This document shows, in pieces, positions 618-64,000 of a stretch of DNA of 64,000 nt. The stretch spans positions 59,312 through 123,311 of the forward strand of contig JBHIAH010000002.1 in NCBI GenBank assembly GCA_046758505.1, written 5' to 3'. The stretch is from Candidatus Methylomirabilales bacterium. GTDB lineage: Bacteria > Methylomirabilota > Methylomirabilia > Methylomirabilales > CSP1-5. Numbering within the stretch: position 1 is the first letter of the stretch; each line of letters begins with the position of its first letter. The translations under genes and the position numbers were made by a program. The notes beneath the pieces were generated by a model. The model saw only the letters and a list, made by a program, of their open reading frames with translations, had not been told where the DNA came from and made no database searches.

Positions 618-764
618 GCTGGGAAGCTAGGAGGCTAGGATGCGAGGAGGCTGGAACGCAAAAAGGCGGGAAGGATTCAATGAAGAGAAGCTGCGACTTT
701 GGAATGCTGAGAAGCTCTTTTGGATGTACGGCCTTCCAGCTTCCTAGCGTCCCAGCATCCTCGC
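618..764. repeat. inverted pair of degenerate 8-mer tandem arrays around a 75-nt core
   Basis: Read directly. Left arm 618-657: GCTGGGAA GCTAGGAG GCTAGGAT GCGAGGAG GCTGGAAC. Right arm 733-764: CTTCCAGC TTCCTAGC GTCCCAGC ATCCTCGC, the reverse complement of the same consensus GCTRGGAN. Lies between the convergent OMP gene and tRNA-Asp. The same word family recurs at 57979-58090. Confidence 0.8.
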
Positions 765-8057: not shown

Positions 8058-10187
8058 TCAGTCGCCGACAAGGCGCAGCAACGCCACGGATCGCCCCTGC
8101 AGGTCGTACGGCTGACCCCCACGCATCAGACGGTATCGTCGCCTTCCTACCGCATCCCGGGTGTCCAGGACCAGTTCCCACCGCAGTTTGGACCGCTGGA
8201 TGGGAAGGACGAATACGATAGGTTCATGGTAGGCGTTGAGGAGGATCAGCAAGGTGTCATCGACGATGCGATTTCCCCGGGCATCAACCTCCTCGATGGC
8301 GTCCCCGGCAAGCCGGAGCCCCAAGCAACGGGTGTGGGAATTTTCCCAGTCCTCGTCGCCCATTTCCTTGCCATCGGGGCGGAACCAAGTCAGATCTTTG
8401 ACCTCGGAGCCGCGGATCCTCCGCCCCTGGAAAAAGTTCCGACGCCGCAGGACCGGGTGCCGATGGTACAGCCGGATCAGGAGCCGAGTGAACTCGAGCA
8501 GCTCAAGCCGGGCTCGGTCTGGGCTCCAGTTTATCCAAGACGTCTCGTTGTCCTGACAATAGGCGTTGTTGTTCCCCTGCTGCGTACGCCCCATCTCGTC
8601 GCCAGCCAGGAGCATCGGAACACCCTGGGAAAGGAAGAGGGTTGCCAGCATGTTTCGTTTCTGCCGCTCTCGGAGGGCGAGGATCGCCGGATCATCTGTG
8701 GGCCCCTCCACGCCACAATTCCAGCTCAGGTTTTCGTCGGTGCCATCCCGGTTTCCCTCTCCGTTCGCCTCGTTATGTTTCCCGTTATAGCTCACCAGGT
8801 CGTGGAGGGTAAATCCATCATGGGCCGTCACAAAGTTGATGCTGGCATACGGCCGGCGGCCCCCATGATCGTAGAGATCGCTGCTTCCGGTCAGGCGGTA
8901 GGCCAGCTCACCGACCTGCCCCAGATCGCCCCTCCAGAAGCGTCTTACGTTATCGCGATATTTTCCATTCCATTCGGCCCACAGGACGGGAAAGTTGCCC
9001 ACTTGGTAGCCCCCCTCGCCGAGGTCCCACGGCTCGGCGATCAGCTTCACCTGCGAGAGGATGGGGTCCTGGTGGATGATGTCGAAGAACGCTGCCAACC
9101 GGTCCACCTCATGCAGTTCTCGCGCGAGGGCTGCGGCGAGATCGAAGCGAAACCCGTCCACGTGCATCTCCAGCACCCAGTACCGAAGGCTGTCCATAAT
9201 CAGCTGGAGTACCCGTGGGTGGGTCATGTCCAAGGTATTCCCGCAACCGGTGTAGTCCATGTAGTAGCGGCGGGTGTCCCCCGCCAGGCGATAATAGGCT
9301 GCATTATCAATGCCGCGAAAGCAGAGGGTTGGTCCGAGATGGTTCCCCTCCCCCGTATGGTTGTACACTACATCGAGGATGACCTCGATCCCCTCGCGGT
9401 GAAGCGTCTTGACCATGGTTTTAAACTCTGCCACCTGCTGGCCCAGAACCCCCGTGCTGGCATACCGCGCGCCGGGGGAGAAGAATCCGATCGAGTTATA
9501 GCCCCAGTAGTTGGTAAGCCCCCGGTCCACAAGTTGTCGATCCGCCACGAACTGGTGCACCGGCAGCAGCTCCACCGCGGTGATCCCCAGCGACCGGAGA
9601 TAGTCGAGGACCGGGGGGCAGGTGAGGCCAGCGTACGTCCCCTGCAGTTCCTTTGGGACGTTCGGGTGTTGGGCCGTAAACCCTTTTACATGCACTTCGT
9701 AGATGATTGTCTTGTGCCAGGGGATCCGCGGTGGCCGGTCCTCGCCCCAGGAGAAGGCCGGGTCGACCACCACGCACTTGGGAATGTCGGCGGCACTGTC
9801 TCGATTATCCCGAGAGCGATCCTCGGCCGGATCCCCGACACGGTATCCGAACAAAGCATCGCTCCAGTGGACGGTGCCGGCGATGGCTTTGGCATAGGGA
9901 TCGATGAGGAGCTTAGCGGGATTGAATCGGTGGCCGGCCTCCGGCTCGTAGGGGCCATGCACCCGATACCCGTAGAGCTGCCCCGGGCGCGCCTCAGGAA
10001 GATAAACGTGCCAGACCTGATCGGTTTGCTCCTGCATCGGGATGCGGGCGATTTCCTGACCGCCGTCCGGCCTCCCGAACAGGCTCAGTTCCACCCCGGT
10101 GGCGTTCTCGGAAAAGAGGGTGAAGTTGACCCCGGCTCCGTCCCAGGTTGCCCCCAGCGGATAGGGATGTCCCGGCCACACCTTCAT
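8058..10187 (-). CDS. glgX: glycogen debranching enzyme
   Basis: [37 protein letters not shown], plus GH13 motifs [21 protein letters not shown] and IAEPWD. Confidence 0.9.
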
Positions 10188-52407: not shown

Positions 52408-52896
52408 ATGCCCAGGGCCCTGAAGATCATCCCCGAAAAGTGCACCGGATGCATGCAGTGTGAACTGGCCTGCTCCTGGGTGCAGACCGGGACCTTCCGC
52501 CCGTCGCGTTCGGTCATTCGGGTGAACGTCTTTGATGAGCAGGCGAGCTATGCCCCTTACACCTGTTTTCAGTGTGAGGAGGCCTGGTGCATGACCGCCT
52601 GCCCGGTCAACGCGATCGCGATCAATCCCGATACGGGCGCCAAGGTCGTCCTGGAGAAGGTCTGCGTGGGGTGCAGCCTGTGTGTCATCGCGTGTCCCTT
52701 CGGGACCATCTTCTGGAATCCCGACACCCACAAGGCCTTCAAGTGCAACCTGTGCGACGCCGACCCGGCCTGCGCCCGGGCCTGCCCGACCGGGGCGATC
52801 GAGTTTGCTGAGCTGCCGGCCGCCGACTGGGTGGGGCCATGGGCGGAGCGACTCAACACCGGGTACCTCGAGGCCCTCGCAGGAGGTGAGGCGTGA
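52408..52896 (+). CDS. 4x[4Fe-4S] ferredoxin-type electron-transfer subunit of aldehyde oxidoreductase (AorA-like)
   Basis: Four Cys clusters: CTGCMQCELAC, CFQCEEAWCMTACP, CVGCSLCVIACP and CNLCDADPACARACP. GGAGGGGAGGAAAGCC precedes the ATG at 52408. Stop overlaps the next GTG. Confidence 0.85.
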   Translation: MPRALKIIPEKCTGCMQCELACSWVQTGTFRPSRSVIRVNVFDEQASYAPYTCFQCEEAWCMTACPVNAIAINPDTGAKVVLEKVCVGCSLCVIACPFGTIFWNPDTHKAFKCNLCDADPACARACPTGAIEFAELPAADWVGPWAERLNTGYLEALAGGEA

Positions 52897-54737
52897 TCTA
52901 CGGCTGGAGCGGGACCATCCTCCGGGTCGATCTGACCCACGGCATCATCACGAAGGAACCCCTGAACCGGCAGTGGGCCCGCGATTACGTCGGCGGGCGG
53001 GGGCTGGGGGCCAAATACCTGTATGCGGAGATGGACCCGACCGTGGATCCCCTGGGCCCGGACAACACCCTGATCTTTGCCACCGGTCCCCTCACCGGGA
53101 CCAACGCCTCGTGCGGGGCCCGGTACATGGTGGTGACCAAGGGAGCCCTGACCAACACGATCACCACCTCCAATTCGGGTGGGCACTGGGGACCGGAGCT
53201 GAAGTTCGCCGGCTACGACATGGTCATCCTCGAGGGACGGGCCGCCCGACCCTCTTATCTGTGGATTTATGACGATCAGGTCGAGATCCGACCGGCGGAT
53301 CACCTGCAGGGGAAAACCGTCTGGGACACAGAGGATCTCATCCGGCAGGAGCTGGGGATTCCCGACGCCATCGTCGCCTGCATCGGTCCCGCGGGCGAGA
53401 AGCTGGTGAAGTTTGCCTGCATCATGAATGACAAGCACCGGGCCGCGGGCCGCTCCGGAGTCGGAGCGGTCATGGGGTCCAAGAACCTGAAGGCCATCGC
53501 CGTTCGCGGAACGAAGGGGGTTCGCATCGCCCACCCCGAGGCCTTCATGAAGGCCGTCTGGGCCGCGAAGGCCAAGCTTCGAGCCTCGCCGACGACAGGT
53601 CAGGGCCTCGCCACGTACGGGACCGCCGTCCTCGTCAACGTCATCAACGAGCACGGGGCCTTCCCTACCAACAACCATCAGCTCGCCCAACTGAAAGGGG
53701 CCGACAAGCTGAGCGGCGAGACCCTGACCGAAACCCGCCTCGTAGCCAACAAGGCGTGCTTCGCCTGTACCATCGCCTGCGGGCGGGTTTCCAAGCTTCC
53801 CGAAGACGCCGCGGGCAAACTCCCGGTGACGACCCATCCCCATAACTGGCGGATCGCAGCGGAGGGCCCGGAGTACGAAAACATCTGGGCTCTCGGGGCG
53901 GACTGCGGTGTCACCGATCTGGACGCCGTCATCAAGGCGAATTTCCTTTGCAACGAGCTGGGGATGGATCCGATTTCGATGGGGGCGACCCTGGCCGCCG
54001 CCATGGAACTGTACGAGAAGGGACATGTCAATCTGGGGCACACGGGGGTCCCGCTCACCTTTGGCAGCGGCGAGGCGTTGGTGGCCATGGTGGAGCAGAC
54101 TGCCTACCGGGAGGGTTTCGGCGGGGAGCTCGCCGAGGGATCCAAGCGGCTCGGCGCAAAGTTCGGCGCCCCCCAGTTTTTCATGGGGGTGAAGGGCCAG
54201 GAATTTCCCGCGTACGACAGTCGAGCGATCCAGGGGATGGGGCTCGGGTACGCCACGTCGAACCGGGGCGCCTGCCATTTGAAGGCGTACACCGTCGCTC
54301 CCGAGATCCTGGGCACGCCCAAAAAGATGGACCCGACGACGACCGAGGGGAAGGCGGGGATCACCAAGCTCATGCAGGACGTCACAGCGTCGGTCGACGC
54401 CACGGGATTGTGTCTGTTCCTGACCTTCGGGATCGGTCTCGAGGACATCCTGCCGCAACTCGCGGCGGGAACCGGCATCCCCTACACGATGGAGAGCATC
54501 CTCCAGGCGGGAGAGCGGATCTGGAACCTCGAGCGGATCTGGAACCAGAAGGCCGGCTTCAGCGGCACGGACGATACCCTGCCCACACGGATCCTCCAAG
54601 AGCCGATCCCCAGCGGGCCAAGCAAGGGGCGGGTAAACCGTCTGCACGAGATGCTTCCCGAGTACTACCAACTCCGGGGCTGGACCCCTGATGGCCAGCC
54701 CTCAGCTCAAAAATTGATCGAACTGGGCCTCCTGTAG
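52893..54737 (+). CDS. aor: tungsten-dependent aldehyde:ferredoxin oxidoreductase (AOR family catalytic subunit)
   Basis: GWSGTILRVDLTHGIITKEPL..., YVGGRGLGAKYLY, SNSGGHWG, and KNLKAIAVRG. Confidence 0.9.
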   Translation: MIYGWSGTILRVDLTHGIITKEPLNRQWARDYVGGRGLGAKYLYAEMDPTVDPLGPDNTLIFATGPLTGTNASCGARYMVVTKGALTNTITTSNSGGHWGPELKFAGYDMVILEGRAARPSYLWIYDDQVEIRPADHLQGKTVWDTEDLIRQELGIPDAIVACIGPAGEKLVKFACIMNDKHRAAGRSGVGAVMGSKNLKAIAVRGTKGVRIAHPEAFMKAVWAAKAKLRASPTTGQGLATYGTAVLVNVINEHGAFPTNNHQLAQLKGADKLSGETLTETRLVANKACFACTIACGRVSKLPEDAAGKLPVTTHPHNWRIAAEGPEYENIWALGADCGVTDLDAVIKANFLCNELGMDPISMGATLAAAMELYEKGHVNLGHTGVPLTFGSGEALVAMVEQTAYREGFGGELAEGSKRLGAKFGAPQFFMGVKGQEFPAYDSRAIQGMGLGYATSNRGACHLKAYTVAPEILGTPKKMDPTTTEGKAGITKLMQDVTASVDATGLCLFLTFGIGLEDILPQLAAGTGIPYTMESILQAGERIWNLERIWNQKAGFSGTDDTLPTRILQEPIPSGPSKGRVNRLHEMLPEYYQLRGWTPDGQPSAQKLIELGLL

Positions 54738-54833
54738 AACGTCCAACGTCCGAGGGCCGAAGTCCGACGCGGGGACAAACGATAGAATAACTTTGGACAT
54801 CGGACGTCGAACATCGCACTTCGGACTTCGCTG
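54738..54833. repeat. inverted heptamer arrays filling the aorB-aorC spacer
   Basis: Left 54738-54772: AACGTCC AACGTCC GAGGGCC GAAGTCC GACGCGG. Right 54792-54833: TTTGGAC ATCGGAC GTCGAAC ATCGCAC TTCGGAC TTCGCTG. The right units are the reverse complement of the GTCCGAN word; for example CGAAGTCCGA pairs perfectly with TCGGACTTCG. Confidence 0.85.
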
Positions 54834-54845
54834 AGCGGAGCGACC

Positions 54846-56234
54846 ATGCAGCACGTGATCATCGGGGGCGGGCCGACCGGGATGTACGCCCTCGATACGA
54901 TTCGAAAACTCGACCAGACGGCCGCCATCACCCTGATTTCGGATGAACCGGCGTACGCGCGCATGGCCCTCCCGTATTATCTGGCCCGAGAAATTCCCGA
55001 GGAGCAGCTCATGCTCGGGAACGACCGCTTCTTTCAGGAGATGCGGGTGGAGGCGCGCCTCGGCCGGCGGGTAACCCGCATCGATCCACAGCAAAGGGTG
55101 GTGACCCTGGACGACGCCAGTACGCTTGACTTCGACACCCTCCTGATCGCCACCGGTTCCTCCCCCACCCGGCCCGCCGTCCCGGGGGTCGATGGCCCCG
55201 GAATCAGCACCCTCTGGACCCTGCAAGAGTCCCGGGACGTCTTGACGCGCGCCCGGGAGGGGGCCAAGGTGGTCTTCATTGGGGCGGGGTTCATCGGTTT
55301 CATCGTGCTGAACGCCCTGCATAAGATCGGCTGCCAGCTCTCGGTGATCGAGATCAAAGATCAGATCCTTTCCCGCATGCTCGACCGAGGCTCGGCCGGC
55401 CTGGTAGAGCGGTGGTTGACCACCAAAGGCATCGCGGTCTATACCGGGGCCACCGTGACAGAGATTGGCGACCTTCGGGATGGTCGGAAGGCCATCCGCC
55501 TGAGCGACGGGCGCACCCTCAGCGCGGATCTAGTGATCGTGGCCACCGGGATTCGTCCCAATACCGACCTTGCCCAGGCCGCTGGGATTCAGGTGCATGA
55601 GGGAATCCTGGCCAACGACCGACTCCAGACGAACTTCCCCTTCATCTATGCGGGAGGAGATACGGCGCAGGGGCCCGACCTCTCGACCAGCGGCCAGGCC
55701 ATCCATGCCATCCAGCCCACCTGCGTGGACCACGGCCGGGTGGCAGGCGCCAATATGGCCGGCGCCACGGTCCACTACGCCGGAAGCCTCCTGGTGAACA
55801 TCCTCGATGTCGCGGGGCTGCACTGCAGCAGCTTTGGCCTCTGGCAGGATGAGGGACGCGAGGCCACGGTTCTTCAGAACCCAAACCGCTTCATCCTCCG
55901 AAAGCTCGTCTGGGAGGGGGACCGGATTGTCGGGGCACTCTTCCTCGGCCCGGCGGAGGACAGCGTGATGCTGAACGACCTGGGAATGGTGAAGGGCCTC
56001 ATCCAGACAAAGGTGAGCCTAGGACCATGGAAAGGGCATCTCATGAAATACCCCCTTGATATTCGACGCCCCTACGTCGCCAGTCGGGCGGCTGAAAGGC
56101 TTCTCCAGTCCACGACCGTGGGACGACCCTCCACGGATCTCAGGTTCCGGCACCTGGGGCACACACCCGAGACCCGACCCACGGCGGCCCATCACGTGAT
56201 GATCAGCACGCAACCAAACATGGACCAACCATAG
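54846..56234 (+). CDS. FAD/NAD(P)-binding pyridine nucleotide-disulfide oxidoreductase (AorC-like subunit)
   Basis: MQHVIIGGGPTGMYAL (first dinucleotide fold), VVFIGAGFIGFIVLNAL (second fold), and YAGGDTA. GGAG lies 5 nt before the ATG. Confidence 0.85.
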   Translation: MQHVIIGGGPTGMYALDTIRKLDQTAAITLISDEPAYARMALPYYLAREIPEEQLMLGNDRFFQEMRVEARLGRRVTRIDPQQRVVTLDDASTLDFDTLLIATGSSPTRPAVPGVDGPGISTLWTLQESRDVLTRAREGAKVVFIGAGFIGFIVLNALHKIGCQLSVIEIKDQILSRMLDRGSAGLVERWLTTKGIAVYTGATVTEIGDLRDGRKAIRLSDGRTLSADLVIVATGIRPNTDLAQAAGIQVHEGILANDRLQTNFPFIYAGGDTAQGPDLSTSGQAIHAIQPTCVDHGRVAGANMAGATVHYAGSLLVNILDVAGLHCSSFGLWQDEGREATVLQNPNRFILRKLVWEGDRIVGALFLGPAEDSVMLNDLGMVKGLIQTKVSLGPWKGHLMKYPLDIRRPYVASRAAERLLQSTTVGRPSTDLRFRHLGHTPETRPTAAHHVMISTQPNMDQP

Positions 56235-56268
56235 TCCGAAGTCCAATGTCCGACGTCCGAAGTCAACA
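56234..56268. repeat. heptamer array starting in the aorC stop codon
   Basis: GTCCGAA GTCCAAT GTCCGAC GTCCGAA GTCAACA. Confidence 0.8.
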
Positions 56269-56474
56269 AAGGCGAGGAAGGGGTTCCTTCCGAGGCAGAC
56301 ACCATCTGGCTTGCGTCGGCCGGGGTCCCGCAGCCGGAGCGAAGCGAAGGCTGGGGTGGCCCACACGAACGAATCAAAACGCCTCACCGCGCGTAAGGTT
56401 GCACCTGTGCATTAAGTCCATGGAGAATATGGTGCTGCCGAGGAAGGTCCTTCCAAGCCTTTAGTGAGACAAGC

Positions 56475-57050
56475 ATGAAGATAGAGATCAAGCTGTTCGC
56501 CAATCTGAAAAAGCTCCTCCCCCCCGACGCCGACGGCAACATGGCCACCCTGGAGGTCGAGGAGAGCCTGACGGTGGGAGCACTCCTCGAGCACCTCCAA
56601 GTCCCCACGGAGCTGGCGCAACTCGTCCTGGTCAACGGTGTCAATATCGAGGGGGAGTATGGGCGGGTCCTTCGAGAGGGCGACACGCTAAGCATCTTCC
56701 CCCCGGTCGCCGGCGGGATCGCCTATCCCTACTTCCCGGATCTCGACAACGCGCCGGAGAAGGAGATTACGCGCGGGGTGAAGATCCGGGTAGCCTGGGG
56801 GGACAAGCTCATGCTCTCCCGCGTCATCCTGGAGCCGGGCGCTACCGTCCCAATGCACAGCCATCCCCATGAGCAAGCGGGGATCGTTTTGGAAGGCGAG
56901 TTCGACTTTACGATCGGCACTGAAACCAGGCGAGTGAAGGCAGGAGATGTCTACTTTATTCCGGGGGGTGTGACGCACGGCTGTCTCGCCTGTACCGGAC
57001 GGGCCATCGCCCTCGACATCTTCACTCCCCCACGGGAGGAGTATAAATAG
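56475..57050 (+). CDS. MoaD/ThiS-like ubiquitin-fold domain fused to a cupin domain
   Basis: aa 1-81: MKIEIKLFANL...VLVNGVNIEGEYGRVLREGDTLSIFPPVAGG, a canonical MoaD ending. It continues without a stop into the cupin motifs PMHSHPHEQAGIVLEGEF and GDVYFIPGGVTHG. Confidence 0.8.
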   Translation: MKIEIKLFANLKKLLPPDADGNMATLEVEESLTVGALLEHLQVPTELAQLVLVNGVNIEGEYGRVLREGDTLSIFPPVAGGIAYPYFPDLDNAPEKEITRGVKIRVAWGDKLMLSRVILEPGATVPMHSHPHEQAGIVLEGEFDFTIGTETRRVKAGDVYFIPGGVTHGCLACTGRAIALDIFTPPREEYK

Positions 57051-57321
57051 GTAGGGCAGAGGGTCTCCCCTCGCCGGCACACCCGTGGGAGCGGTCACTT
57101 CGCTCGCCAATCTCTCCCTCCTCTGGCTCACCCCTTGCATTCATAACCCTGCGATCGCCGTACTCGTGAGCCGTGGCCCCGGTTGGCGGAGCATTGGGCG
57201 CTGACCACACGGGGTGGCGGGGCTCTTGCACCGCCGGGAAAAGGGATGTAGGTTCCCCAGACAAGGTCCAGGGGGGTGCCGGGCACCCCCTCAGAATGCC
57301 GGGTGAAGTGTGGGAGGACGG

Positions 57322-57930
57322 ATGCTCGACCTGAATGCGCTGATCAGCCATTGGGGATACCTAGCCATCTTTTTCGGAATCATCCTCGGCAACGTGGGAC
57401 TTCCCATTCCGGAAGAGACGGTCCTCGTTCTCGCTGGATTCCTCGCCTGGGGTGGTAGGTTCCGGCTGCCGCTGGTCCTCGCGATCGGCATCGTGGGCGC
57501 AGTGGCTGGCGACAATATGGGGTACTGGGCCGGCCGACGCTATGGGCTGGCGGTGCTCAAGCGGTACGGCAGCCGGCTCTACGTCACGGCGGACCGATTC
57601 GAGAGGATGCAGCGCATCGTCAAGCGATACGGCCCCTCCGGGGTGTTCGTCTCACGATTTCTCCCGGGGCTCCGCTTCATGGCCGGCCCGCTCGCCGGGA
57701 CCACCGGACTACCATTTTTCTCCTTCTTTGTCTCGAATGTCCTCGGCGCGATCGTGTACGCGCCGACGATGGTGGGGCTCGGCTATGCCATCGGTTACGG
57801 ACTTGGCCAGTACGTCGAGCGGTTTCAGCAGGTCGTGCGGCAGACCGAACACATCCTGCTGCTCGGCGTGATCGTCCTCACCGTGATGCTTCTCGGCTGG
57901 CGGGCCTTCCGTTCCCGCACACACGCCTGA
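57322..57930 (+). CDS. DedA family inner-membrane protein
   Basis: GYLAIFFGIILGNVGLPIPEETVLVLAGFLA, GDNMGYWAGRRYG, and VFVSRFLPGLRF. Confidence 0.85.
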   Translation: MLDLNALISHWGYLAIFFGIILGNVGLPIPEETVLVLAGFLAWGGRFRLPLVLAIGIVGAVAGDNMGYWAGRRYGLAVLKRYGSRLYVTADRFERMQRIVKRYGPSGVFVSRFLPGLRFMAGPLAGTTGLPFFSFFVSNVLGAIVYAPTMVGLGYAIGYGLGQYVERFQQVVRQTEHILLLGVIVLTVMLLGWRAFRSRTHA

Positions 57931-57937
57931 CTCGAAC

Positions 57938-58122
57938 CAGCTGCCAGTTGTCAGCCGTCCGCTGTCAGCAGAGGAGATGCTGGGAAGCGAGGATGCTAGA
58001 AAGCTTGGATGCTGGGAGGGAGTCTGTTGTCAGGCTCCCCCGTCCCCACACGCCCGGCCTACTAGCCTTCTAGCGTTCCAGCCTGCTAGCCGCCTATTGC
58101 TGACTGCTGACAGCCGACAGCT
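57938..58122. repeat. nested inverted repeat arrays between convergent dedA and the NxxGxxAF gene
   Basis: Outer arms: CAGCTGC CAGTTGT CAGCCGT CCGCTGT CAGCAG (57938-57971) versus TTGCTGACTGCTGACAGCCGACAGCT (58097-58122). CTGCTGACAGC is shared as a perfect complement, and 17 of 19 nt match when extended. Inner arms: GCTGGGAA GCGAGGAT GCTAGAAA GCTTGGAT GCTGGGAG (57979-58018) versus CTACTAGC CTTCTAGC GTTCCAGC CTGCTAGC (58059-58090). Confidence 0.85.
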
Positions 58123-59320
58123 ATCTCGCGGTGGGGACGGCAAGGAAGAGACCGGAGGCAGCCCGGCCACCCTCGACAGTACCCGCAAACGCCACGGTGC
58201 CGTCGGGGCCGACTTCCGGATCGATCACATTGGTAAAACGTCCCCCCAGCGGAGTCGGGTCCCCGACCCGGACGACCGGCATCAAGGTTGCTTTCGTGGC
58301 GAGGAAGATTCCGGCACTCGCCTCTCCCCGCGAAATTGTCGCTTCAAAGGCGACGGTACCGCTTTGATTGAACGAGTACGTCAGGCCGATAAAAGAGAGC
58401 TGCCCCCCGCCCGGCACGGGATCTCCCCGTGCCGCTATCTTTTTGATGGACCCGTCCGAGGCCAGGAAGAGGCCCGCGGGGGCTCGAGCCCCCTCGAGCG
58501 AGGCCCAAAAGACCACCTCCCCATGATCGTTCAGCATCGGGAGGGCCAGGTCCTTGAAGGTCCCCCCGAGGGGGGACGGATCTCCCACGGCAACCACTGT
58601 CTGCACACCTGACTTCGGACCCACAAAGATTCCCGAAGGGGCCCTGCCGCGATGCACTCTGCCTTCAAAGACCATCTCCCCCCGGTTGTTCATCGACAGG
58701 TCGACAAACTCACCGAATCGACCGCCGACCGACGTGGGATCACCAGCCCCCACCACCTTTTCAAGGACGCCCGCCGAGGCGAAGAAGAGAGCCCTGGGCA
58801 CCTTGCCGCGCTCCACGCGACCCACAAAGGCAATGGCATCGGCGCAATTGAGCACCACCTGGCCGAGCTCCCGGAGGACACCGCCACCCGGGGCAGCGTC
58901 ATTCACCGCCACCACCTTCTTCAGACTGTTTCCCCCCCTGAAGTAAATCGCCTGGGGAACCCCGCCCGCCGCCGAGCCGACGAAGGCCACATTCCCCCGC
59001 CGATTCAGGGCCGTGGAACTCAGATCGATAAACGTCCCCCCCAGGGGAGAGGAATCGCCTATGGCGACGACCCGAGTGAGGGAAACGCCTCGCGCCACGT
59101 AGACCCCATGAAACGGTTCATCCTTCTTTTTCACCAAGGCATCAAACAGAATCGCGCCGGTGTTCGCCACGGGGTCAAAATGCGTAAAGGTCCCTCCCTG
59201 AGGCGCCCCGTCCCCCGCGGCCACCACCTTCAGGATGGTAAACGCGGCGGGCTCGGCCGAGCCCACCCCGAACAGGAATAGTAGTAAGGCAGCGACAAAG
59301 GCTCTCCGTAGCACCCTCAC
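58121..59320 (-). CDS. secreted tandem-repeat protein (NxxGxxAF-type repeats, probable beta-propeller)
   Basis: Signal peptide MRVLRRAFVAALLLFLFGVGSA. About eight repeats of roughly 48 aa with the pattern VVA-GD--P-GG-F------N--G-VAF------G---G-F. Confidence 0.75.
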   Translation of the reverse strand: MRVLRRAFVAALLLFLFGVGSAEPAAFTILKVVAAGDGAPQGGTFTHFDPVANTGAILFDALVKKKDEPFHGVYVARGVSLTRVVAIGDSSPLGGTFIDLSSTALNRRGNVAFVGSAAGGVPQAIYFRGGNSLKKVVAVNDAAPGGGVLRELGQVVLNCADAIAFVGRVERGKVPRALFFASAGVLEKVVGAGDPTSVGGRFGEFVDLSMNNRGEMVFEGRVHRGRAPSGIFVGPKSGVQTVVAVGDPSPLGGTFKDLALPMLNDHGEVVFWASLEGARAPAGLFLASDGSIKKIAARGDPVPGGGQLSFIGLTYSFNQSGTVAFEATISRGEASAGIFLATKATLMPVVRVGDPTPLGGRFTNVIDPEVGPDGTVAFAGTVEGGRAASGLFLAVPTAR

Positions 59321-59377
59321 CAGACTCTCCTCCCTCTCATGCCCGACTAACCCTGGCCGATGACCGGAAACCGCCTC

Positions 59378-59636
59378 GGTTCATGGTTCATAGTTTATGG
59401 TTCATGACCAACAGTTCACGGTGGATGATTCATGGTTCATGGTGGTGCTCGGAGTATAAGTCTATGAACTCTGAACCTTCAATCCTGAACTCCCTACCAC
59501 CATTCACTAGTCACCAGCCACCACTCACCCGCCACGAGTCACCTGCCGACAGACGACTGGTGACCGCAGACCGACGACTGACTTTGGACGTTGGACTTTG
59601 GACCCTCACGGTGAACCGTGAACTATGAACCGTGAA
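59378..59636. repeat. 259-nt mosaic of 37 phase-locked heptanucleotides
   Basis: Stepping by 7 from 59378: GGTTCAT GGTTCAT AGTTTAT GGTTCAT GACCAAC AGTTCAC GGTGGAT GATTCAT GGTTCAT GGTGGTG ... CTATGAA CTCTGAA CCTTCAA TCCTGAA ... TCACCAG CCACCAC TCACCCG CCACGAG TCACCTG CCGACAG ACGACTG GTGACCG CAGACCG ACGACTG ACTTTGG ACGTTGG ACTTTGG ACCCTCA CGGTGAA CCGTGAA CTATGAA CCGTGAA. No register slip. Confidence 0.9.
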
Positions 59637-60657
59637 CAGGCCTTATGACGGCCGGCTTTCGATGCCGGGCCATTCGGATTGCCACCCGGAGCGCCTCCAG
59701 GAGGCTCTGCGGGCTGGCTGTCCCCTTTCCGGCAATGTCGAAGGCGGTCCCGTGATCCACCGAAGTCCGGATTATCGGCAGCCCCACAGTCACATTGACC
59801 GCCCGACCGAAACTCCGGAGTTTGACAGCGACATGCCCCTGATCGTGATACATCGCGACGACGAAATCGAACCCGCCTCGGGCCGCCCGGTAAAAGAGGG
59901 TATCGGCAGGAAAGGGCCCCGTGGCATCGATCCCCTCTCCTCGGGCCGCCGCCACCGCCGGAGCGATCTCTTCCCGCTCTTCGCCGCCAAAGAGCCCCTC
60001 TTCCCCTGCGTGGGGATTCAGGCCGGCCACGGCGATCCGTGGCCTGGGAAGATCCCATGCCGCTCCGACCTCGTGCGCCAAGCGGACGACCTGCAACACG
60101 CGCTCTTTCTTGACCCGATCACACGCCTCGCGAAGGGGGACATGCGTGGAGACATGGAGCACCCGGAGCCTTCCTGCGACCAACATGAGCGCGTAGTTTC
60201 GGACGCCAGTCCGTTCGGCAAAGATCTCGGTATGCCCCCCGAACGGATAGCCGGCGAGATGCATCGCCTCTTTGTTGAGCGGGGCCGTGACCACCGCATC
60301 GAGCTCACCGGCCCGGGCGAGCTCGATCGCCTTCCAGACGTACTCAACGGCCGCCCGCCCGGCTTGGGCCGAGAGAACGCCCGGGGGACACTGCTCCACT
60401 TCGACATTCTTGAGGTCGAGGACTGCCACCTCTCCCGCGTGGCCGGTTACCTCCCCAACCGAACCGATCCGCCGAACGCCGACAGAGACCCCCACATAGC
60501 CCTGCGCCCGGTCCAAGACGGCGCCGTCCCCCACGACGATCGGGATCGCCTGGCGGGAGATCGCCCCGTGAGCGAGGGCCTTGATGATGATCTCCGGCCC
60601 GATCCCAGCCGGATCGCCCATGGTAATGCCGATGCGTAGCTTCCTTTTCTCCGCCAC
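59623..60657 (-). CDS. pdxA: PdxA family 4-hydroxythreonine-4-phosphate dehydrogenase
   Basis: LRIGITMGDPAGIGPEIIIKA, and SVDHGTAFDIAGKG. GTG at 60657 has GGAGG 5 nt upstream. The listed ATG at 60717 lies inside the heptamer repeat. Confidence 0.85.
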   Translation of the reverse strand: MAEKRKLRIGITMGDPAGIGPEIIIKALAHGAISRQAIPIVVGDGAVLDRAQGYVGVSVGVRRIGSVGEVTGHAGEVAVLDLKNVEVEQCPPGVLSAQAGRAAVEYVWKAIELARAGELDAVVTAPLNKEAMHLAGYPFGGHTEIFAERTGVRNYALMLVAGRLRVLHVSTHVPLREACDRVKKERVLQVVRLAHEVGAAWDLPRPRIAVAGLNPHAGEEGLFGGEEREEIAPAVAAARGEGIDATGPFPADTLFYRAARGGFDFVVAMYHDQGHVAVKLRSFGRAVNVTVGLPIIRTSVDHGTAFDIAGKGTASPQSLLEALRVAIRMARHRKPAVIRPVHGS

Positions 60658-60710
60658 TCGCACCTCCCCGCCGCCGGATTTTAGCACACTCTCTCGTCGG
60701 TGCCAAAGTC

Positions 60711-60836
60711 GGTTCACGGTTCACAGTTCACGGTTGAGGGTCCAACGCCCGAAACTACGGCTTTTGGCCCGGTTCATGGTTCATAGTTCATGGTTCAGTG
60801 GAAACAGAAATTCGCAATCCCCAATTCGAAATTCGA
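60711..60836. repeat. heptamer arrays in the pdxA / sucC-like divergent spacer
   Basis: GGTTCAC GGTTCAC AGTTCAC GGTTGAG GGTCCAA (60711-60745). GGTTCAT GGTTCAT AGTTCAT GGTTCAG (60771-60798, register shifted by 4). AATTCGC AATCCCC AATTCGA AATTCGA (60809-60836). Confidence 0.85.
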
Positions 60837-60916
60837 TATACCCAACCCACGGTCGTCGGTCAACCCTGGGGGGCTTGCTCCTTGAACCGGGCGGGGAAAG
60901 GGTATAAGGTGAATTC

Positions 60917-62125
60917 ATGCGACTCCTCGAACACGAAGCCAAGCGGCTCCTCGCCGCCTGTCAGGTCCCGGTGCCCGCCGGCCTGCTGATCTCATCGGAA
61001 CCCGAACTCACGAGGGCGTGCGGCGCCATCAGGTCTCCTCGCATGCTGAAGGCTCAGATCCCCACGGGGGGACGGGGGAAGGCCGGAGGCGTCGTGAAGG
61101 TCGGCACGTCTGATGAGGGCCTCAGAACAGGCAGGGGCCTCCTCGGCCGATCTCTGCTCGGCCACCCGGTTACCGCGCTACTCCTCGAGGAGCCGGCAGA
61201 GGTCGAGGAGGAACTGTACGCGGCCGTCACGTATGATCCGGTGGCCAGGCGCCCGGTCATGATCCTCAGCCGATCCGGGGGAATCGATGTGGAGGTAAGG
61301 GCCGCCCGATCCCCCGGCGCGGTGCAGACAATGCCCTTCGATCCTTTGGAGGGGTTCCACCCGTTTCGCGCCCGGGAGATCGTCCACCGGCTGGGATTCT
61401 CTGGCACTGAACTGCTCCAGCTTTCTGACCTTCTCTGCCGGCTCGTCGACTGCTTCCGGCGCTTCGAAGCTACGCTCGTCGAGGTGAATCCCCTGGCAAA
61501 AACGCCCCGAGGAGCGTTCGTCGCCCTCGACGCCCGCATCGAACTGGACGAGGATGCCCTGTGCCGGCACCCCGAGCTCGCGGCGCGCCATGACATCCAG
61601 CCGCGGGAATCGGGCGTTCGCCCCGTAACCCCCTTCGAGCAGCAGGCGCGGACCATCGACGCCATGGACCACCGGGGGGTGGCGGGACGGGTGATCGAGT
61701 TTGCGGGAGACCTCGGCCTGCTCATCGGTGGCGGAGGGGCGTCCCTGACCGCCTTTGACGCGATCCTGCGGCACGGGGGGTATCCGGCCAACTACTGCGA
61801 GATCGGCGGCAATCCTTCGGTCAAGAAGCTTCAGGCGTTGACCGCGCTCATCCTCTCCAGACCCCGGGTGAAGAAGCTGGCCGTGATCATGAACGTGGTC
61901 TCCAATACCCGGGCGGACCTAGTGGCTCGGGGGGTGATCAAGGGAGTGCTGGAGCGGGGAATGAAGCCACACGAGACCATCGTCTGCTTCCGGGTCCCCG
62001 GGTCGTGGGAAGATGAAGCGCTGAAGATTTTACGGCGGTATGGGGTAACCCCCTGCGACCGGTCCGTCTCGATTGACGAGGCCGCCCGTCTCGCGGTGCG
62101 CCGGGCACACGGTGAGGCCGCGTGA
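60917..62125 (+). CDS. succinyl-CoA synthetase / ATP-citrate-lyase-like acyl-CoA synthetase, ATP-grasp (beta-type) subunit, divergent
   Basis: MRLLEHEAKRLL..., and GGRGKAGGVVKV. LLIGGGGASLTAFDAILRHGGYPANYCEIGGNP resembles the ACL/CCS type more than the canonical SucC NGAGLAM. Confidence 0.75.
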   Translation: MRLLEHEAKRLLAACQVPVPAGLLISSEPELTRACGAIRSPRMLKAQIPTGGRGKAGGVVKVGTSDEGLRTGRGLLGRSLLGHPVTALLLEEPAEVEEELYAAVTYDPVARRPVMILSRSGGIDVEVRAARSPGAVQTMPFDPLEGFHPFRAREIVHRLGFSGTELLQLSDLLCRLVDCFRRFEATLVEVNPLAKTPRGAFVALDARIELDEDALCRHPELAARHDIQPRESGVRPVTPFEQQARTIDAMDHRGVAGRVIEFAGDLGLLIGGGGASLTAFDAILRHGGYPANYCEIGGNPSVKKLQALTALILSRPRVKKLAVIMNVVSNTRADLVARGVIKGVLERGMKPHETIVCFRVPGSWEDEALKILRRYGVTPCDRSVSIDEAARLAVRRAHGEAA

Positions 62126-62126
62126 G

Positions 62127-62243
62127 ATGACGATGCACCGGGAAATATATCAGTGTGATCTCTGCGGAGCCACGATGCAGGATATTCACTGTAAGCTCGT
62201 CTGCCCTGACTGTGGCTATACGCGCGACTGCTCGGACCCCTAG
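62127..62243 (+). CDS. unlisted 38-aa Cys-rich zinc-ribbon-like protein
   Basis: MTMHREIYQCDLCGATMQDIHCKLVCPDCGYTRDCSDP. Its ATG is 1 nt after the upstream TGA, and its TAG is 3 nt before the downstream ATG. Six Cys including two CxxC pairs. Too short for the supplied ORF track. Confidence 0.55.
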   Translation: MTMHREIYQCDLCGATMQDIHCKLVCPDCGYTRDCSDP

Positions 62244-62246
62244 ACG

Positions 62247-63185
62247 ATGGCGATTCTGGTCGACGAAAAAACACGGATCCTGATTCAGGGGATTACCGGC
62301 CGAGAAGGGGCGGCCATGGCGAAGGACTCCGTGGAGTATGGGGCACAGATCGTGGCGGGCGTCACGCCGGGAAAGGGGGGCCGCCAGATTCACGGGGTGT
62401 CGGTCTATGATTGCGTCAGCCACGCCGTGAAGGAACACGGCATGGACGCGGCGGTGATCGCGGTCCCCCCGCCCTTTGCCAGGGACGCCGCCCTCGAAGC
62501 CCTCTCGTGCGGCATCGGCCTCGTGGTGATCCTCACCGAGCGCATCCCCCGCAAAGATACGGTAGAGATCGTCAGCTTCGCCGCGCAGCAGGGGGCCCAC
62601 GTCATCGGTCCGAACTCGTTAGGAATAATCTCCCCTGGGAAGACGAAAGTCGGTATGATCGGGGGGCCCGCGCAGGACGTGCGGAAGGCCTATCAGCCCG
62701 GCGCGGTCGGCATCATCTCGCGCAGCGGCGGGATGACCACGGAGATCGCCACGCTCCTTACCCTGAACGGCATCGGACAGTCTACCTGTGTGAGCATCGG
62801 GGGGGATCCGATCGTCGGGACCCATTACCTCGACTTGATCCCCCTCTTCGCCCGGGACCCGGCAACGGCAGTAGTGGTGCTCTTCTGCGAGCCTGGTGGC
62901 GGGGCCGAAGAGGCCCTGGCCGACCGGGTCGCCCGAGAGGGGCTCCCCGTGCCGATCGTGGCATTCGTGGCTGGACGGTTTGCCGACCGGATGCCGGGAA
63001 CGCGTTTCGGGCATGCCGCCGTCATGGTGGAGGGGAAGCGCGGGAGTACCCAGGGAAAGATCGAGGCGTTCCGCCGCGCCGGCCTTCCTGTGGCCGAAGA
63101 GCTCACCGGCATAGTCCCTTTGGTCCGGGAGGCCCTCGGACGGGAGAAAAACAGTTCAGGGTTCAGAGTTCATGGTTCAGGGTAA
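62247..63185 (+). CDS. succinyl-CoA synthetase alpha-type (CoA-binding, phosphohistidine) subunit
   Basis: MAILVDEKTRILIQGITGREG, GVTPGKGG, GPNSLGIISPG, SRSGGMTTE and QSTCVSIGGDPI, with the phosphohistidine loop GTRFGHAAVM. The last 11 codons (SSGFRVHGSG) are encoded by the heptamer repeat. Confidence 0.85.
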   Translation: MAILVDEKTRILIQGITGREGAAMAKDSVEYGAQIVAGVTPGKGGRQIHGVSVYDCVSHAVKEHGMDAAVIAVPPPFARDAALEALSCGIGLVVILTERIPRKDTVEIVSFAAQQGAHVIGPNSLGIISPGKTKVGMIGGPAQDVRKAYQPGAVGIISRSGGMTTEIATLLTLNGIGQSTCVSIGGDPIVGTHYLDLIPLFARDPATAVVVLFCEPGGGAEEALADRVAREGLPVPIVAFVAGRFADRMPGTRFGHAAVMVEGKRGSTQGKIEAFRRAGLPVAEELTGIVPLVREALGREKNSSGFRVHGSG

Positions 63186-63187
63186 GG
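63153..63187. repeat. heptamer array overlapping the sucD-like 3' end
   Basis: AGTTCAG GGTTCAG AGTTCAT GGTTCAG GGTAAGG. The TAA stop (63183-63185) lies in the last unit. Confidence 0.85.
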
Positions 63188-63204
63188 GGCACAGAGAAAA
63201 ACAA

Positions 63205-63474
63205 ATGACGGCCGGGGCGGAAATACTGAAAGGCATCTTTATCAGGGTGGCGGTGAACGACCCGGCGTGTCTCGGGATAGAGCAGTGCGGGGACTGTGTG
63301 GGCCTCTGCCCGGTCGATATTTTTTATCCCGTCGGGGACCGGGTCAGCGTGCAGGAGGAAGACGAGTGCACGCTGTGTACCCTGTGCCTCACATGCCCCA
63401 CCGATGCCATCCGGATTGTGAAGCTGTATGAGGATGGGGAGTCCGATGTCCAAAGTCCAACGTCCAAAGTCTAG
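63205..63474 (+). CDS. 2x[4Fe-4S]-type ferredoxin-like protein
   Basis: CLGIEQCGDCVGLCP and CTLCTLCLTCP. The start is uncertain: ATG at 63205, or ATG at 63172 overlapping the upstream gene. The C-terminal DVQSPTSKV is encoded by GTCCAAA-type heptamers. Confidence 0.65.
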   Translation: MTAGAEILKGIFIRVAVNDPACLGIEQCGDCVGLCPVDIFYPVGDRVSVQEEDECTLCTLCLTCPTDAIRIVKLYEDGESDVQSPTSKV

Positions 63475-63714
63475 GACCCTTGGGCGGGGGGCTGGCGGGG
63501 GGCTGGCGGTTGGCGGCTGGTGGCACGGAGTTCAGGGTTGAGGGTTCAGAGTTCATGAGGAGTGGATGGTGGTTGGTAAGGGTCGTGGGTGTTGGGTGTT
63601 AGGTTTGAGTCATGCGCGATCATTACTGAGTGCTGAGGGGCGATTTGGCATTGCTGACCGCTCACTGCTGACGGCCGACCGCTGATTCCATCGGTCGCCG
63701 GTCGTCGGTCACCG
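63441..63714. repeat. 274-nt mosaic of heptamer arrays plus an 11-mer duplication
   Basis: GTCCGAT GTCCAAA GTCCAAC GTCCAAA GTCTAGG. GGGGGGCTGGC x2 (63486-63507). AGTTCAG GGTTGAG GGTTCAG AGTTCAT. GTGGATG GTGGTTG GTAAGGG TCGTGGG TGTTGGG TGTTAGG. TACTGAG TGCTGAG GGGCGAT TTGGCAT TGCTGAC CGCTCAC TGCTGAC GGCCGAC CGCTGAT TCCATCG GTCGCCG GTCGTCG GTCACCG. Confidence 0.88.
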
Positions 63715-63716
63715 AC

Positions 63717-64000
63717 ATGCGAGGAGGCATGGCAGGGACTATCTCCCAAGGACTGGCCAGATTTATCACCGATATCACGATCGACAGGCTGCCGGCCGAG
63801 GTGATCGAGATGACCAAGCTCTGCCTCCTCGACTGGCTGGGCTCCGCCATCGCGGGGGGGATCACTCGGCCCGTCCAGATGTTTCTCCGGGTGGCCACGG
63901 ATCTCGGCGGAAGACCTCAGGCGACCCTGATCCCCGATGGTTCCAAGACCTCGTGCCACCTCGCCGCGCTCGTCAACGCCGCCTCTTCCCACGTCGTGGA
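63717..64000 (+). CDS. MmgE/PrpD family protein (2-methylcitrate dehydratase-like), 3' end outside window
   Basis: An open frame not in the ORF track, because it has no stop in the window: MRGGMAGTISQGLARFITDITIDRLPAEVIEMTKLCLLDWLGSAIAGGITRPVQMFL...ATLIPDGSKTSCHLAALVNAASSHVV. This is a typical MmgE/PrpD N-terminus. The start may be the ATG at 63729. Confidence 0.7.
   Translation, partial: MRGGMAGTISQGLARFITDITIDRLPAEVIEMTKLCLLDWLGSAIAGGITRPVQMFLRVATDLGGRPQATLIPDGSKTSCHLAALVNAASSHVV

Follow-up and report, generated by a model that had tools for sequence, protein, structure and literature searches.

Most of the intergenic spacers in the final 9 kb of a 64-kb stretch of DNA (contig JBHIAH010000002.1, positions 59,312 to 123,311; the whole stretch is hereafter called the window) are occupied by short tandem arrays of degenerate heptanucleotides, in some cases octanucleotides. 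These arrays resemble the short tandemly repeated repetitive (STRR) sequences of other bacteria: they make up a family of several words, dispersed in intergenic DNA and present singly or as convergent pairs, and represent a new example, in Methylomirabilota, of a repeat class that is already known but has no accepted function. The window (G+C, 63%) probably originates from a Methylomirabilota bacterium; the nearest relatives of its SucD-like protein, at 67–70% identity, belong to Candidatus Methylomirabilota metagenome-assembled genomes (MAGs). With our confidence evenly balanced between yes and no, we propose that the arrays are non-autonomous selfish or near-neutral repeats in which a protein that reads the core once every 7 bp maintains it, and that hairpin effects at gene 3′ ends are secondary.

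Occurrence, insertion and copying of the arrays

When all 32 gaps of 40 nt or more were scanned for self-matches at lag 7 (threshold, at least 16 of 21 matches), only six stood out: 54738–54845, 56235–56474, 57931–58120, 59321–59622, 60718–60916, and 63475–63716. Tandem Repeats Finder (TRF) independently placed period-7 arrays at the same six spacers and added two more, at 63154–63183 and 63440–63471. Lag-7 arrays cover 579 of the 1,623 intergenic nt in 54738–63716 and 0 of the 5,314 in 1–54737, while the same coverage scan at lags 5, 10, and 13 yielded no intergenic bases at all. Their share of coding sequence is small (104 of 7,356 nt) and restricted to gene 3′ ends. Three-unit patterns of two words occur 5 and 7 times where shuffles predict 0, and the first 54 kb contain no match to GTTCA or GTCCRA even at two units. 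The sequence-only reading that preceded this work had reported arrays in seven of the eight spacers between aorB and the prpD-like gene; this count was confirmed, and the clustering is significant (7 of 8 array-bearing spacers in the last 9 kb versus 1 of 24 upstream; Fisher p = 1.8e-5). The one earlier locus that it had listed, at 618–764, is indeed the sole array-bearing spacer of those 24, but its period is 8, not 7, as the gap 609–981 gave a lag-8 signal (17 of 21) and no lag-7 signal. The inner part of the dedA|NxxGxxAF spacer, also described as heptameric, likewise has a period of 8, and the array assigned to the sucD|ferredoxin spacer exists but sits in the 3′ end of the sucD-like open reading frame (ORF; 63151–63184) and not in the 19-nt spacer itself. 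The array observation is real and statistically strong. Base composition and skew revealed no island-like signal in the array-rich region.

Arrays of the window are four to five units long, with one of ~9 units, and their TRF match is 62–90%; for the family, four to six units are typical. Each unit consists of a conserved core of ~5 nt and one or two variable positions. The words fall into the classes RGTTCAY, GTCCRAN, GGTCRYC, CAGYYGY/GCTGACN, G/T-rich GGYKGNN, GAAATTC, and the octamer GMTRSGRR, with CTGWCAG as a further word.

The aor-to-prpD gene order is kept in two relatives, L005 and L012, which allowed the comparison of syntenic spacers that the sequence-only reading had proposed; the orthologous spacers of both relatives proved to be short and free of arrays. 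The DUF7453|pdxA spacer is shorter than 90 nt in these relatives versus 302 nt in the window, and the ferredoxin|prpD spacer measures 3 nt in L005 versus 242 nt in the window. Arrays of other words are present in the same two spacers in L008. In the pdxA|sucC spacer, alignment with L005 and L012 showed that, compared with L005, the arrays form an insertion of ~140 nt; they lie upstream of a proximal TTGAAC-N17-TATAAG block, which aligns with L005 and is retained.

Modules are shared between loci in both orientations. The complementarity noticed earlier between 59581–59601 and 63448–63468 extends to 59580–59603 and 63448–63471, which are reverse complements at 100% (24/24). This match is one part of a pair of collinear composites in opposite orientation, the other part being 59464–59533 versus 63556–63487 (70 nt at 76%). 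Further copies include 59377–59404 and 60770–60797 (28 nt at 96%) and 58099–58122 and 63660–63683 (87.5%), and the octamer arrays at 615–765 and 57976–58096, 57 kb apart, have words in common. A relationship between 63693–63713 and the complement of 59553–59566, also suggested from the letters, did not stand up, since the two have only a loose word-class likeness and just CGGTCACC in common. The composite at 59375–59639 has a counterpart in L188, a metagenome contig of 60% GC: a 121-nt core, including the non-repetitive loop GCTCGGAGTATAAGYCTATGRAC, is shared at 82% identity (window 59370–59490), and 59445–59496 matches L188 5043–5156. Because the adjoining genes in L188 encode a two-component system, this copy is non-syntenic. 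L188 also bears arrays of the GAAATTC, GTCCAAA, and GGTCGYC classes, and, by inspection, the variable R position follows the pattern G-G-A-G in six of nine RGTTCAY arrays of the window, L005, and L188. A plasmid BLAST search with the composite (59360–59645) gave no match, for which the low-complexity filter is a possible cause.

Four independent short-read assemblies of the same strain do not differ in their heptamer arrays. The sole difference among these samples over ~4 kb concerns a perfect 11-mer, GGCGGGGGGCT (63483–63509), present in 2.5 copies in the window and L001 and in one copy more in L002 and L003. As only this perfect 11-mer varies, the heptamer arrays are not simple hypervariable microsatellites. 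Protein queries with the ferredoxin and the MoaD-cupin fusion for further contigs of the strain returned none that were new. We also observed that the L004 contig ends inside an array, at window position 63183, and that L001–L003 all stop ~25 nt past the window end, in prpD.

Since the spacers of relatives are array-free, copies are shared between spacers of the window, and L188 carries the composite, we conclude, in agreement with the sequence-only reading, that the arrays are a dispersed, copy-pasted family and not products of independent slippage. Together, these results show that they are lineage-specific additions to free intergenic DNA, copied between loci, which fill free DNA up to and, in three cases, over stop codons, tolerate or create new gene ends, and leave intact at least the one proximal promoter-like block open to comparison.

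Regularities of the family in other genomes

We next consider loci outside the window. In 1.15 Mb around SucD-like genes from 80 unrelated genomes, we detected 43 lag-7 and 19 lag-8 arrays versus 1–5 each at lags 5, 10, 11, and 13; many of the arrays were inverted pairs built from other words. Three tandem GTCCRA units were found in 96 IMG/VR stretches, and the 80 of these that were examined contained 288 lag-7 arrays in 688 kb. The 24-nt module GTTCAYGGTTCAYAGTTCAYGGTT had more than 120 exact matches listed, in metagenome contigs of 33–69% GC; our metagenome sample consists of 120 array loci (L181–L300) among the matches listed. IMG/VR, the sole collection scanned with both this module and a reverse-order control, gave one occurrence of the module and none of the control. 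Methylomirabilales and Desulfobacterales (Desulfobacterota) are among the named MAGs in which GTTCA arrays occur. Because RGTTCAY occurs in Desulfobacterota MAGs and in the more than 120 metagenome contigs listed across this GC range, the heptamer class is not lineage-specific.

Some further contigs deserve mention. An octamer word, GRAGCTRG, is common to L010 3550–3590 (Candidatus Schekmanbacteria, 40% GC; GGAAGCTG AGAAGCTG) and window 618–654 (GAAGCTAG GAGGCTAG), and the sharing of words across phyla therefore extends to the 8-nt class. L142, an IMG/VR "viral" contig of 12 kb and 63% GC, carries ten arrays of the TGACTGA/TTACTGA/TAACTGA type between 2186 and 12168, with up to 14 units; the same word family is on record from Beggiatoaceae and cyanobacteria, and L142 shows it in a contig of high GC content. 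The array-bearing contig L241 also has a group II intron at 9109–9724 (−) (Rfam RF02001, RF01998, RF00029), which is probably unrelated to its arrays. Among the 120 listed metagenome array matches, 35 lie at or near contig edges.

The metagenome loci obey a small set of rules. Over 259 units that lie outside the forced match, conservation is 91–99% in the GTTCA core versus 56–57% at the two flanking positions, which are mostly R and Y. The modal array has four units, although some elsewhere have 26–49. An inverted partner of an RGTTCAY array lies downstream in 37 cases and upstream in 1, and counts by cluster give the same polarity (GTTCA, 55:3; GTCCRA, 12:0). With other words, the 5′ arm is again the G/T-rich one (GG versus CC, 30:4; TT versus AA, 28:7). 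The paired elements are 67–335 nt long, start with GTTCA, end with TGAAC, and enclose segments of 37–170 nt between the arms.

Gene orientation, on the other hand, has no detectable influence. The sequence-only reading had suggested testing for an association with 3′ ends or convergent junctions; measured against crude ORF calls at the 120 loci, sense arrays numbered 21 and antisense arrays 24, and convergent and divergent spacers 13 each, so that neither a strand bias nor a spacer-type bias emerged. Arrays lay a median of 48 nt from 3′ ends and 83 nt from 5′ ends, and were thus somewhat nearer to the former. Unpaired arrays showed no GT/AC strand bias, an apparent keto-skew bias was confounded by selection of the viral set, and the numbers of paired versus single arrays by spacer type were too small for use. 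In sense-strand hairpins, G·U and A·C mismatches numbered 51 and 62, with neither an excess of G·U nor overdispersion. Arm complementarity at the variable positions was 0.68 within pairs versus 0.54 between pairs, an underpowered comparison (n = 8). These results show that the core is under constraint, that pair polarity is fixed, and that gene orientation is ignored; nothing points to selection on RNA structure or to a strand-specific function.

The same data bear on whether the arrays might be plain microsatellites, made in place by replication slippage, a process known to favor units of 7 nt, with neither dispersal nor function. According to the summary of Mrazek (2007) given in PMC4679880, heptanucleotides are the most abundant class of long simple sequence repeats (SSRs) in most prokaryotes, and slippage was proposed as their source; the excess of lag-7 and lag-8 arrays over other lags in the unrelated loci and the one-copy difference in the perfect 11-mer between samples fit this idea. 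Slippage leaves unexplained, however, the identical modules, the collinear composites and the L188 copy, the confinement of variation to two of seven positions, the 37:1 polarity, and the use of one word from 33 to 69% GC, and no heptamer copy-number change was seen among the four samples. We therefore hold this origin to be highly doubtful: the shared modules, the pair polarity, the L188 copy, and the core constraint largely refute pure slippage.

Array anatomy, gene ends and folding in the window

The gene map was drawn from ORFs and third-position GC, and its last 11 kb were checked with Pfam. In order, the region encodes the AOR catalytic protein (aorB, 52893–54737), a pyridine-nucleotide-disulphide oxidoreductase (aorC-like, 54846–56234), a ThiS/MoaD-cupin fusion (56475–57050), DedA (end at 57930), DUF7453 (58121–59320, minus strand), PdxA (59623–60669, minus strand), a SucC-like ATP-grasp protein (60917–62125), a SucD-like protein (62247–63185), a small ferredoxin (63205–63474), and PrpD (from 63717). 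The gene names given earlier from the letters were broadly correct; Pfam refined aorB to AOR, aorC to the pyridine-nucleotide-disulphide oxidoreductase, and the NxxGxxAF protein to DUF7453. The 121-nt gap between the SucC-like and SucD-like genes is a gene and not a spacer, because it contains a 38-aa CxxC...CxxC zinc-ribbon ORF (62127–62243, +; weak HVO_2523-like Pfam match in the Logan gene call).

The AOR stop codon is immediately followed by a GTCCRAN array (54738–54768, +), the 5′ arm of a pair whose inverted arm at 54790–54832 (+; TRF period 7/14) reads TTGGACA TCGGACG TCGAACA TCGCACT TCGGACT, the complement of the same class. This second arm ends 14 nt upstream of the aorC-like ATG and matches 56233–56264, reversed, at 87.5%. 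The latter lies within the next array, GTCCRAN ×4.6 at 56232–56264 (+), which overlaps the aorC-like stop codon (56232–56234). After it comes a non-coding block of ~200 nt (56268–56465, +) that ends ~10 nt before the MoaD-cupin start codon. This block is 78–82% identical to L188 4426–4622 (−), which lies immediately upstream of a gene for an OmpR-type response regulator; Rfam yielded nothing for the block at E ≤ 10, and the 72-aa ORF that overlaps it looks non-coding. It may be a conserved leader, a non-coding RNA, or another dispersed module.

The convergent dedA/DUF7453 spacer is filled by a nested palindromic composite (57938–58125), self-complementary over 185 nt, in which outer heptamer arms of CAGYYGY (57938–57971) and GCTGACN (58092–58125) surround octamer arms at 57976–58019 and 58054–58091. 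Octamer arrays also make up the inverted pair at 615–765 (TRF period 8/16), with a 5′ arm at 615–654, GAAGCTAG GAGGCTAG GATGCGAG GAGGCTGG, and a 3′ arm at ~729–765, placed between the stop of a plus-strand gene (606–608) and tRNA-Asp(GTC) (773–850, −). Beyond the pair, the stretch 876–938 is 81% identical to part of this tRNA gene (793–853) but is not called a tRNA by ARAGORN; judged by its sequence, it appears to be a partial tRNA duplication or pseudogene of the kind that integrative elements leave.

The NxxGxxAF|pdxA composite is the most elaborate. Its 5′ arm is the RGTTCAY array of ~9 units (59375–59444, +; TRF; inverted repeats I1, I2, and I5), followed by a core (59445–59496, +) made of the loop GCTCGGAGTATAAGTCTATG and an inner inverted arm, ATGAACT CTGAACC TTCAATC CTGAACT, with a promoter-like match on the minus strand (59482–59453). 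Three word classes then stand in series (59497–59603, +; TRF): CCACCAN/TCACNAG ×7, ACGACTG/GTGACCG ×4, and ACTTTGG/ACGTTGG ×3, the last being the complement of GTCCAAN. The 3′ arm is YRTGAAC ×4 (59607–59639, +). Such an arrangement could be imagined as an inverton, in which convergent arrays serve as the inverted repeats of an invertible segment that switches an internal promoter; the pairs do enclose intergenic segments of 37–170 nt, and the promoter-like site of this core faces the DUF7453 gene. Yet the segment has the window orientation in L001, the sole independent contig that crosses it (the other three Logan contigs start downstream), and the L188 core has the same orientation relative to its arms. 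Moreover, most arrays are unpaired and no recombinase gene lies nearby, and we find the inverton idea scarcely credible.

In the divergent pdxA|sucC-like spacer (60707–60862, +; TRF and three-unit scan), three direct arrays, GGTTCAC ×3 (60707–60742), GGTTCAT ×4 (60767–60801), and GAAATTC-type ×4 (60807–60836), are followed by CGGTCGT CGGTCAA. The 3′ end of the sucD-like ORF holds RGTTCAG ×4 (63151–63184, +; TRF), and that of the ferredoxin gene GTCCRAN ×4.6 (63438–63475, +; TRF and three-unit scan). The ferredoxin|prpD spacer contains G/T-rich arrays (63483–63609, +; TRF), namely the 11-mer, GGCTGGC-type units, GAGTTCAGGGTTGAGGGTTCAGAGTTCAT, and GGGTGTT-type units, and then GCTGACN-type and GGTCGCC GGTCGTC GGTCACC arrays (63660–63714, +), which end 2 nt before the prpD-like start codon.

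At seven genes, an array either begins at the stop codon or extends across it. One begins 7 nt after the DedA stop, and the DUF7453 stop codon is overlapped like that of the aorC-like gene. The last five codons of PdxA, PVHGS, and its stop (59623–59625, − strand) are array-encoded, as are the C-terminal tails SSGFRVHGSG plus stop of the SucD-like protein, most homologues of which terminate near residue 297, and ESDVQSPTSKV plus stop of the ferredoxin. One array, that of the sucD-like gene, is older: L005 has GGTTCAT GGTTCAC AGTTCAC GGTTCAT at the identical place in its sucD-like 3′ end. A role specific to sucD was considered and rejected: arrays stand at the sucD 3′ end in 5 of 75 loci, but those genomes are array-rich in general, the exception being the conserved L005 case.

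Inverted pairs occur at four loci of the window, and all four follow the convergent polarity. Compared with shuffles, folding was favored for 57938–58125 (z = −4.4 on the plus and −3.7 on the minus strand), for 59375–59639 (−5.2 as RNA, −4.2 as DNA, −3.1 as minus-strand RNA), and for 615–765 (−2.8). The pair in the aorB|aorC spacer (−0.5) and the ferredoxin|prpD spacer (−1.2) did no better than shuffles, and the pdxA|sucC spacer, which has direct arrays only, formed no hairpin (+1.6). With only three of six composites beating shuffles, a general description of the arrays as hairpin elements was set aside. Because the opposite strand and DNA folded about as well as sense-strand RNA, the folding could not be assigned to a strand or molecule. 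Rfam covariance models gave no match at E ≤ 1 in 54000–64000 and none over the arrays of 20 related loci, and canonical hairpin-plus-T-run terminators were found at 8 sites versus 6.4 expected, none of them at arrays.

These observations are relevant to a primary role at the RNA level, in which 3′-end hairpins would act as factor-independent or bidirectional terminators or as barriers to 3′ exonucleases, as proposed for repetitive extragenic palindromic (REP) sequences. The three pairs that fold better than shuffles are located at convergent junctions (dedA/DUF7453; gene/tRNA-Asp) or follow the 3′ end of a gene, arrays begin at stop codons and, in metagenomes, lie nearer to 3′ ends, and the chance-level number of canonical terminators suggests that other 3′ structures may be needed. 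Against this, half of the array-bearing spacers fold no better than shuffles, many arrays lack a partner or occupy a divergent promoter spacer, convergent and divergent spacers are equally represented without strand preference, neither sense-strand G·U enrichment nor T-runs are seen, and relatives do without the arrays. A primary RNA role is consequently improbable in our judgment.

Relation to known repeats and possible origin

Intergenic heptamer repeats have reportedly been known since 1990, when Mazel et al. are said to have described the oldest example, the STRR heptamers of cyanobacteria, and are said to have been recognized as the dominant long SSR class in 2007. STRR arrays are longer and more perfect than those of the window. 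Of the features of the STRR and long SSR class, head-to-tail 7-nt repetition beyond chance, non-coding location, and convergent pairs are present in the window, whereas the long, near-perfect arrays of that class contrast with the four to nine units and 62–90% match seen there. Cyanobacterial STRR and TAACTGA repeats share with the window arrays an intergenic location, several heptamer words per genome, a word common to distant phyla, and the lack of a known function. STRR heptamers are mentioned in PMC4692102. TAACTGA repeats, common to Beggiatoaceae, Cyanobacteria, and Bacteroidetes, differ in lying mostly just upstream of start codons, in forward orientation and with almost no inverted repeats (PMC4679880).

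The closest parallels are in Xanthomonas, Nostoc, and Geobacter. The GGGAATC repeat of Xanthomonas occupies ~190 intergenic sites per genome, and in 70–75 cases two arrays on opposite strands converge (Rehm et al. 2015, PMC4692102). It and GGGGAYT of Nostoc resemble our arrays in their head-to-tail intergenic 7-nt units and in a pair polarity that places the G-rich unit in the 5′ arm, and their single-or-paired type is kept between species while repeat length varies (PMC4692102). They differ in having one G-rich word per genome, read as G-quadruplex-forming, in arrays of up to 14–26 perfect units (PMC4692102), whereas the window has six words or more, most of which cannot form G-quadruplexes, in mosaics of four to five degenerate units. 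G. metallireducens has four tandem GGACCGG (49 sites), five tandem MTYCTGA, and four tandem octamers GTTGCTYN (Aklujkar et al. 2009, PMC2700814). There, too, four to five units, 7- and 8-nt periods in one genome, opposite-strand pairs at variable distance, location between and sometimes within genes, and absence from the sister species are found (PMC2700814). The words are different, however, IHF/HU or regulatory-RNA sites were proposed without a test, and the description does not include polarity, stop-codon invasion, or multi-word mosaics (PMC2700814).

Like REP sequences, bacterial interspersed mosaic elements (BIMEs), and REP doublets forming hairpins (REPINs), the window arrays are dispersed between and behind genes, form hairpin-capable inverted doublets, and are combined with other motifs in mosaics. 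A REP unit is an imperfect palindrome of 20–40 nt with a conserved head, and the genes for REP-associated tyrosine transposases (RAYTs) are usually flanked by repeats. The window units are instead non-palindromic tandem 7-mers. Following the suggestion in the sequence-only reading, we looked for RAYT-type or other mobilizing genes and saw none within the 64-kb window; the neighbors of the 120 metagenome loci included no recurrent mobilization genes or transposases, and clustering them gave nothing but common families, among them two-component systems (the recurrent neighbors were response regulators, kinases, epimerases, and ABC ATPases). As the unit is no palindrome and no link to a RAYT was found, the arrays are not REP elements, and the idea that they are this lineage's own REP/BIME equivalent found no support, since the class is already represented in Xanthomonas, G. 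metallireducens, Beggiatoaceae, and cyanobacteria. The BIME analogy is fair as a description only (mosaic, hairpin-capable, intergenic). One could still suppose a true REP/BIME (REPIN) system mobilized by a RAYT (Y1/HUH) transposase elsewhere in the genome, given the dispersal, the fixed-polarity inverted doublets, and the mosaic combination of modules. But a single array does not fold alone and has no GTAG-type head, no Y1 transposase was found among the neighbors of the 120 loci (a weak check, RAYTs being single-copy), and the unit architecture and word diversity are unlike any REP family, which makes such a system very improbable.

Repeats bound by ribbon-helix-helix (RHH) proteins offer another precedent. 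In pSM19035, the RHH protein omega (ParB) binds WATCACW units of 7 bp that adjoin one another in direct or converging orientation, and it requires at least four contiguous repeats (PMC9499535). The likeness lies in the contiguous 7-bp units, the conserved core with variable flanks (WATCACW versus RGTTCAY), and the threshold of four; the difference is that omega arrays are plasmid-borne, comprise 7–10 units of other sequence, and lie over promoters of cognate operons (PMC9499535). The genes that flank the window arrays are metabolic according to Pfam, and no overlap with cognate promoters of the omega type was found. By analogy, the arrays might be tiling sites on double-stranded DNA, occupied at one unit per 7 bp (8 bp for octamers) as RHH dimers occupy heptads, with pairs as two oriented filaments and a role in nucleoid organization, insulation, or global regulation. 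The 5-nt core with two variable positions in strict 7-nt register, the four-unit mode, the strict pair polarity, the independence of gene direction, and the persistence of one core in genomes of very different GC content are in its favor, as are omega itself and the proposal that the four-unit heptamer and octamer sites of G. metallireducens are sites for a global regulator (PMC2700814). At least six unrelated words in 9 kb, however, would demand either several proteins or a very loose specificity. Arrays are placed at 3′ ends, in gene ends, and between convergent genes without promoter preference, their absence from syntenic relatives shows that the operon can dispense with them, some elsewhere run to 26–49 units, and no RHH, Par, or other candidate binder is among the ten genes of 52.9–64 kb scanned with Pfam. 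We consider tiling unlikely, though it deserves real weight.

We return to our preferred reading of the arrays as non-autonomous selfish or near-neutral repeats. They would behave like REPINs or MITEs (miniature inverted-repeat transposable elements) and spread by copy-paste, through gene conversion, template switching, or a trans-acting enzyme; slippage of units would add minor length changes only, a sequence-specific protein would hold the core constant in a 7-bp register, and any effect on expression would be a by-product, for example of hairpins formed at 3′ ends or in convergent spacers. As in MITEs, which measure 100–400 nt, terminal inverted repeats surround an element (59375–59639 in the window; 67–335 nt among the pairs). 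Several points weigh against this reading. No mobilizing gene, target-site duplication, or recurrent neighboring transposase was found (window; 39 pairs; neighbors of the 120 loci, respectively); inspection of the sequences flanking the 39 pairs revealed no consistent direct repeat, as a MITE would leave. Pair interiors, apart from the core shared by the window and L188, are mostly unrelated, unlike those of classical MITEs. The presence of several unrelated core words in 9 kb makes a single recognizing protein awkward. The array at the sucD 3′ end, with the same position and word in a relative at 70% protein identity, hints at persistence or function over pure turnover, and the three better-than-shuffle pairs at 3′ or convergent junctions may reflect a selected 3′-end role.

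Heptamer repeats still have no accepted function or origin. The window is a clean case in a little-studied phylum, as its conserved gene cluster separates insertion from ancestry, and it shows that arrays alter gene 3′ ends, with three array-encoded C-terminal tails. Any model is constrained by the 5-nt core with two variable positions, the mode of four units, the convergent polarity, and the occurrence of RGTTCAY at 33–69% GC, and further by the indifference to gene orientation and the lack of any trace of selection on RNA pairing. Because of these regularities, we argue for protein recognition in a 7-bp register over slippage alone. Literature searches with literal repeat words returned primers only, and those for Methylomirabilis returned nothing; the core-plus-two unit, the four units, the convergent polarity, and the cross-phylum word appear to be undescribed in the searchable literature. 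As a tentative and rather unlikely proposal, RGTTCAY-type arrays and their sister words could be chromosomal binding arrays of a widespread protein that contacts a 5-nt core every 7 bp over about four units and assembles directionally. If so, directional assembly would explain why paired arrays always converge, and the arrays would belong to a pan-bacterial nucleoprotein system for insulation or nucleoid organization (RHH/omega-like) or would be the ends of new non-autonomous mobile elements with heptad-array termini. The regularities of the family make the heptamer-repeat question more testable and provide concrete probes for pull-down.

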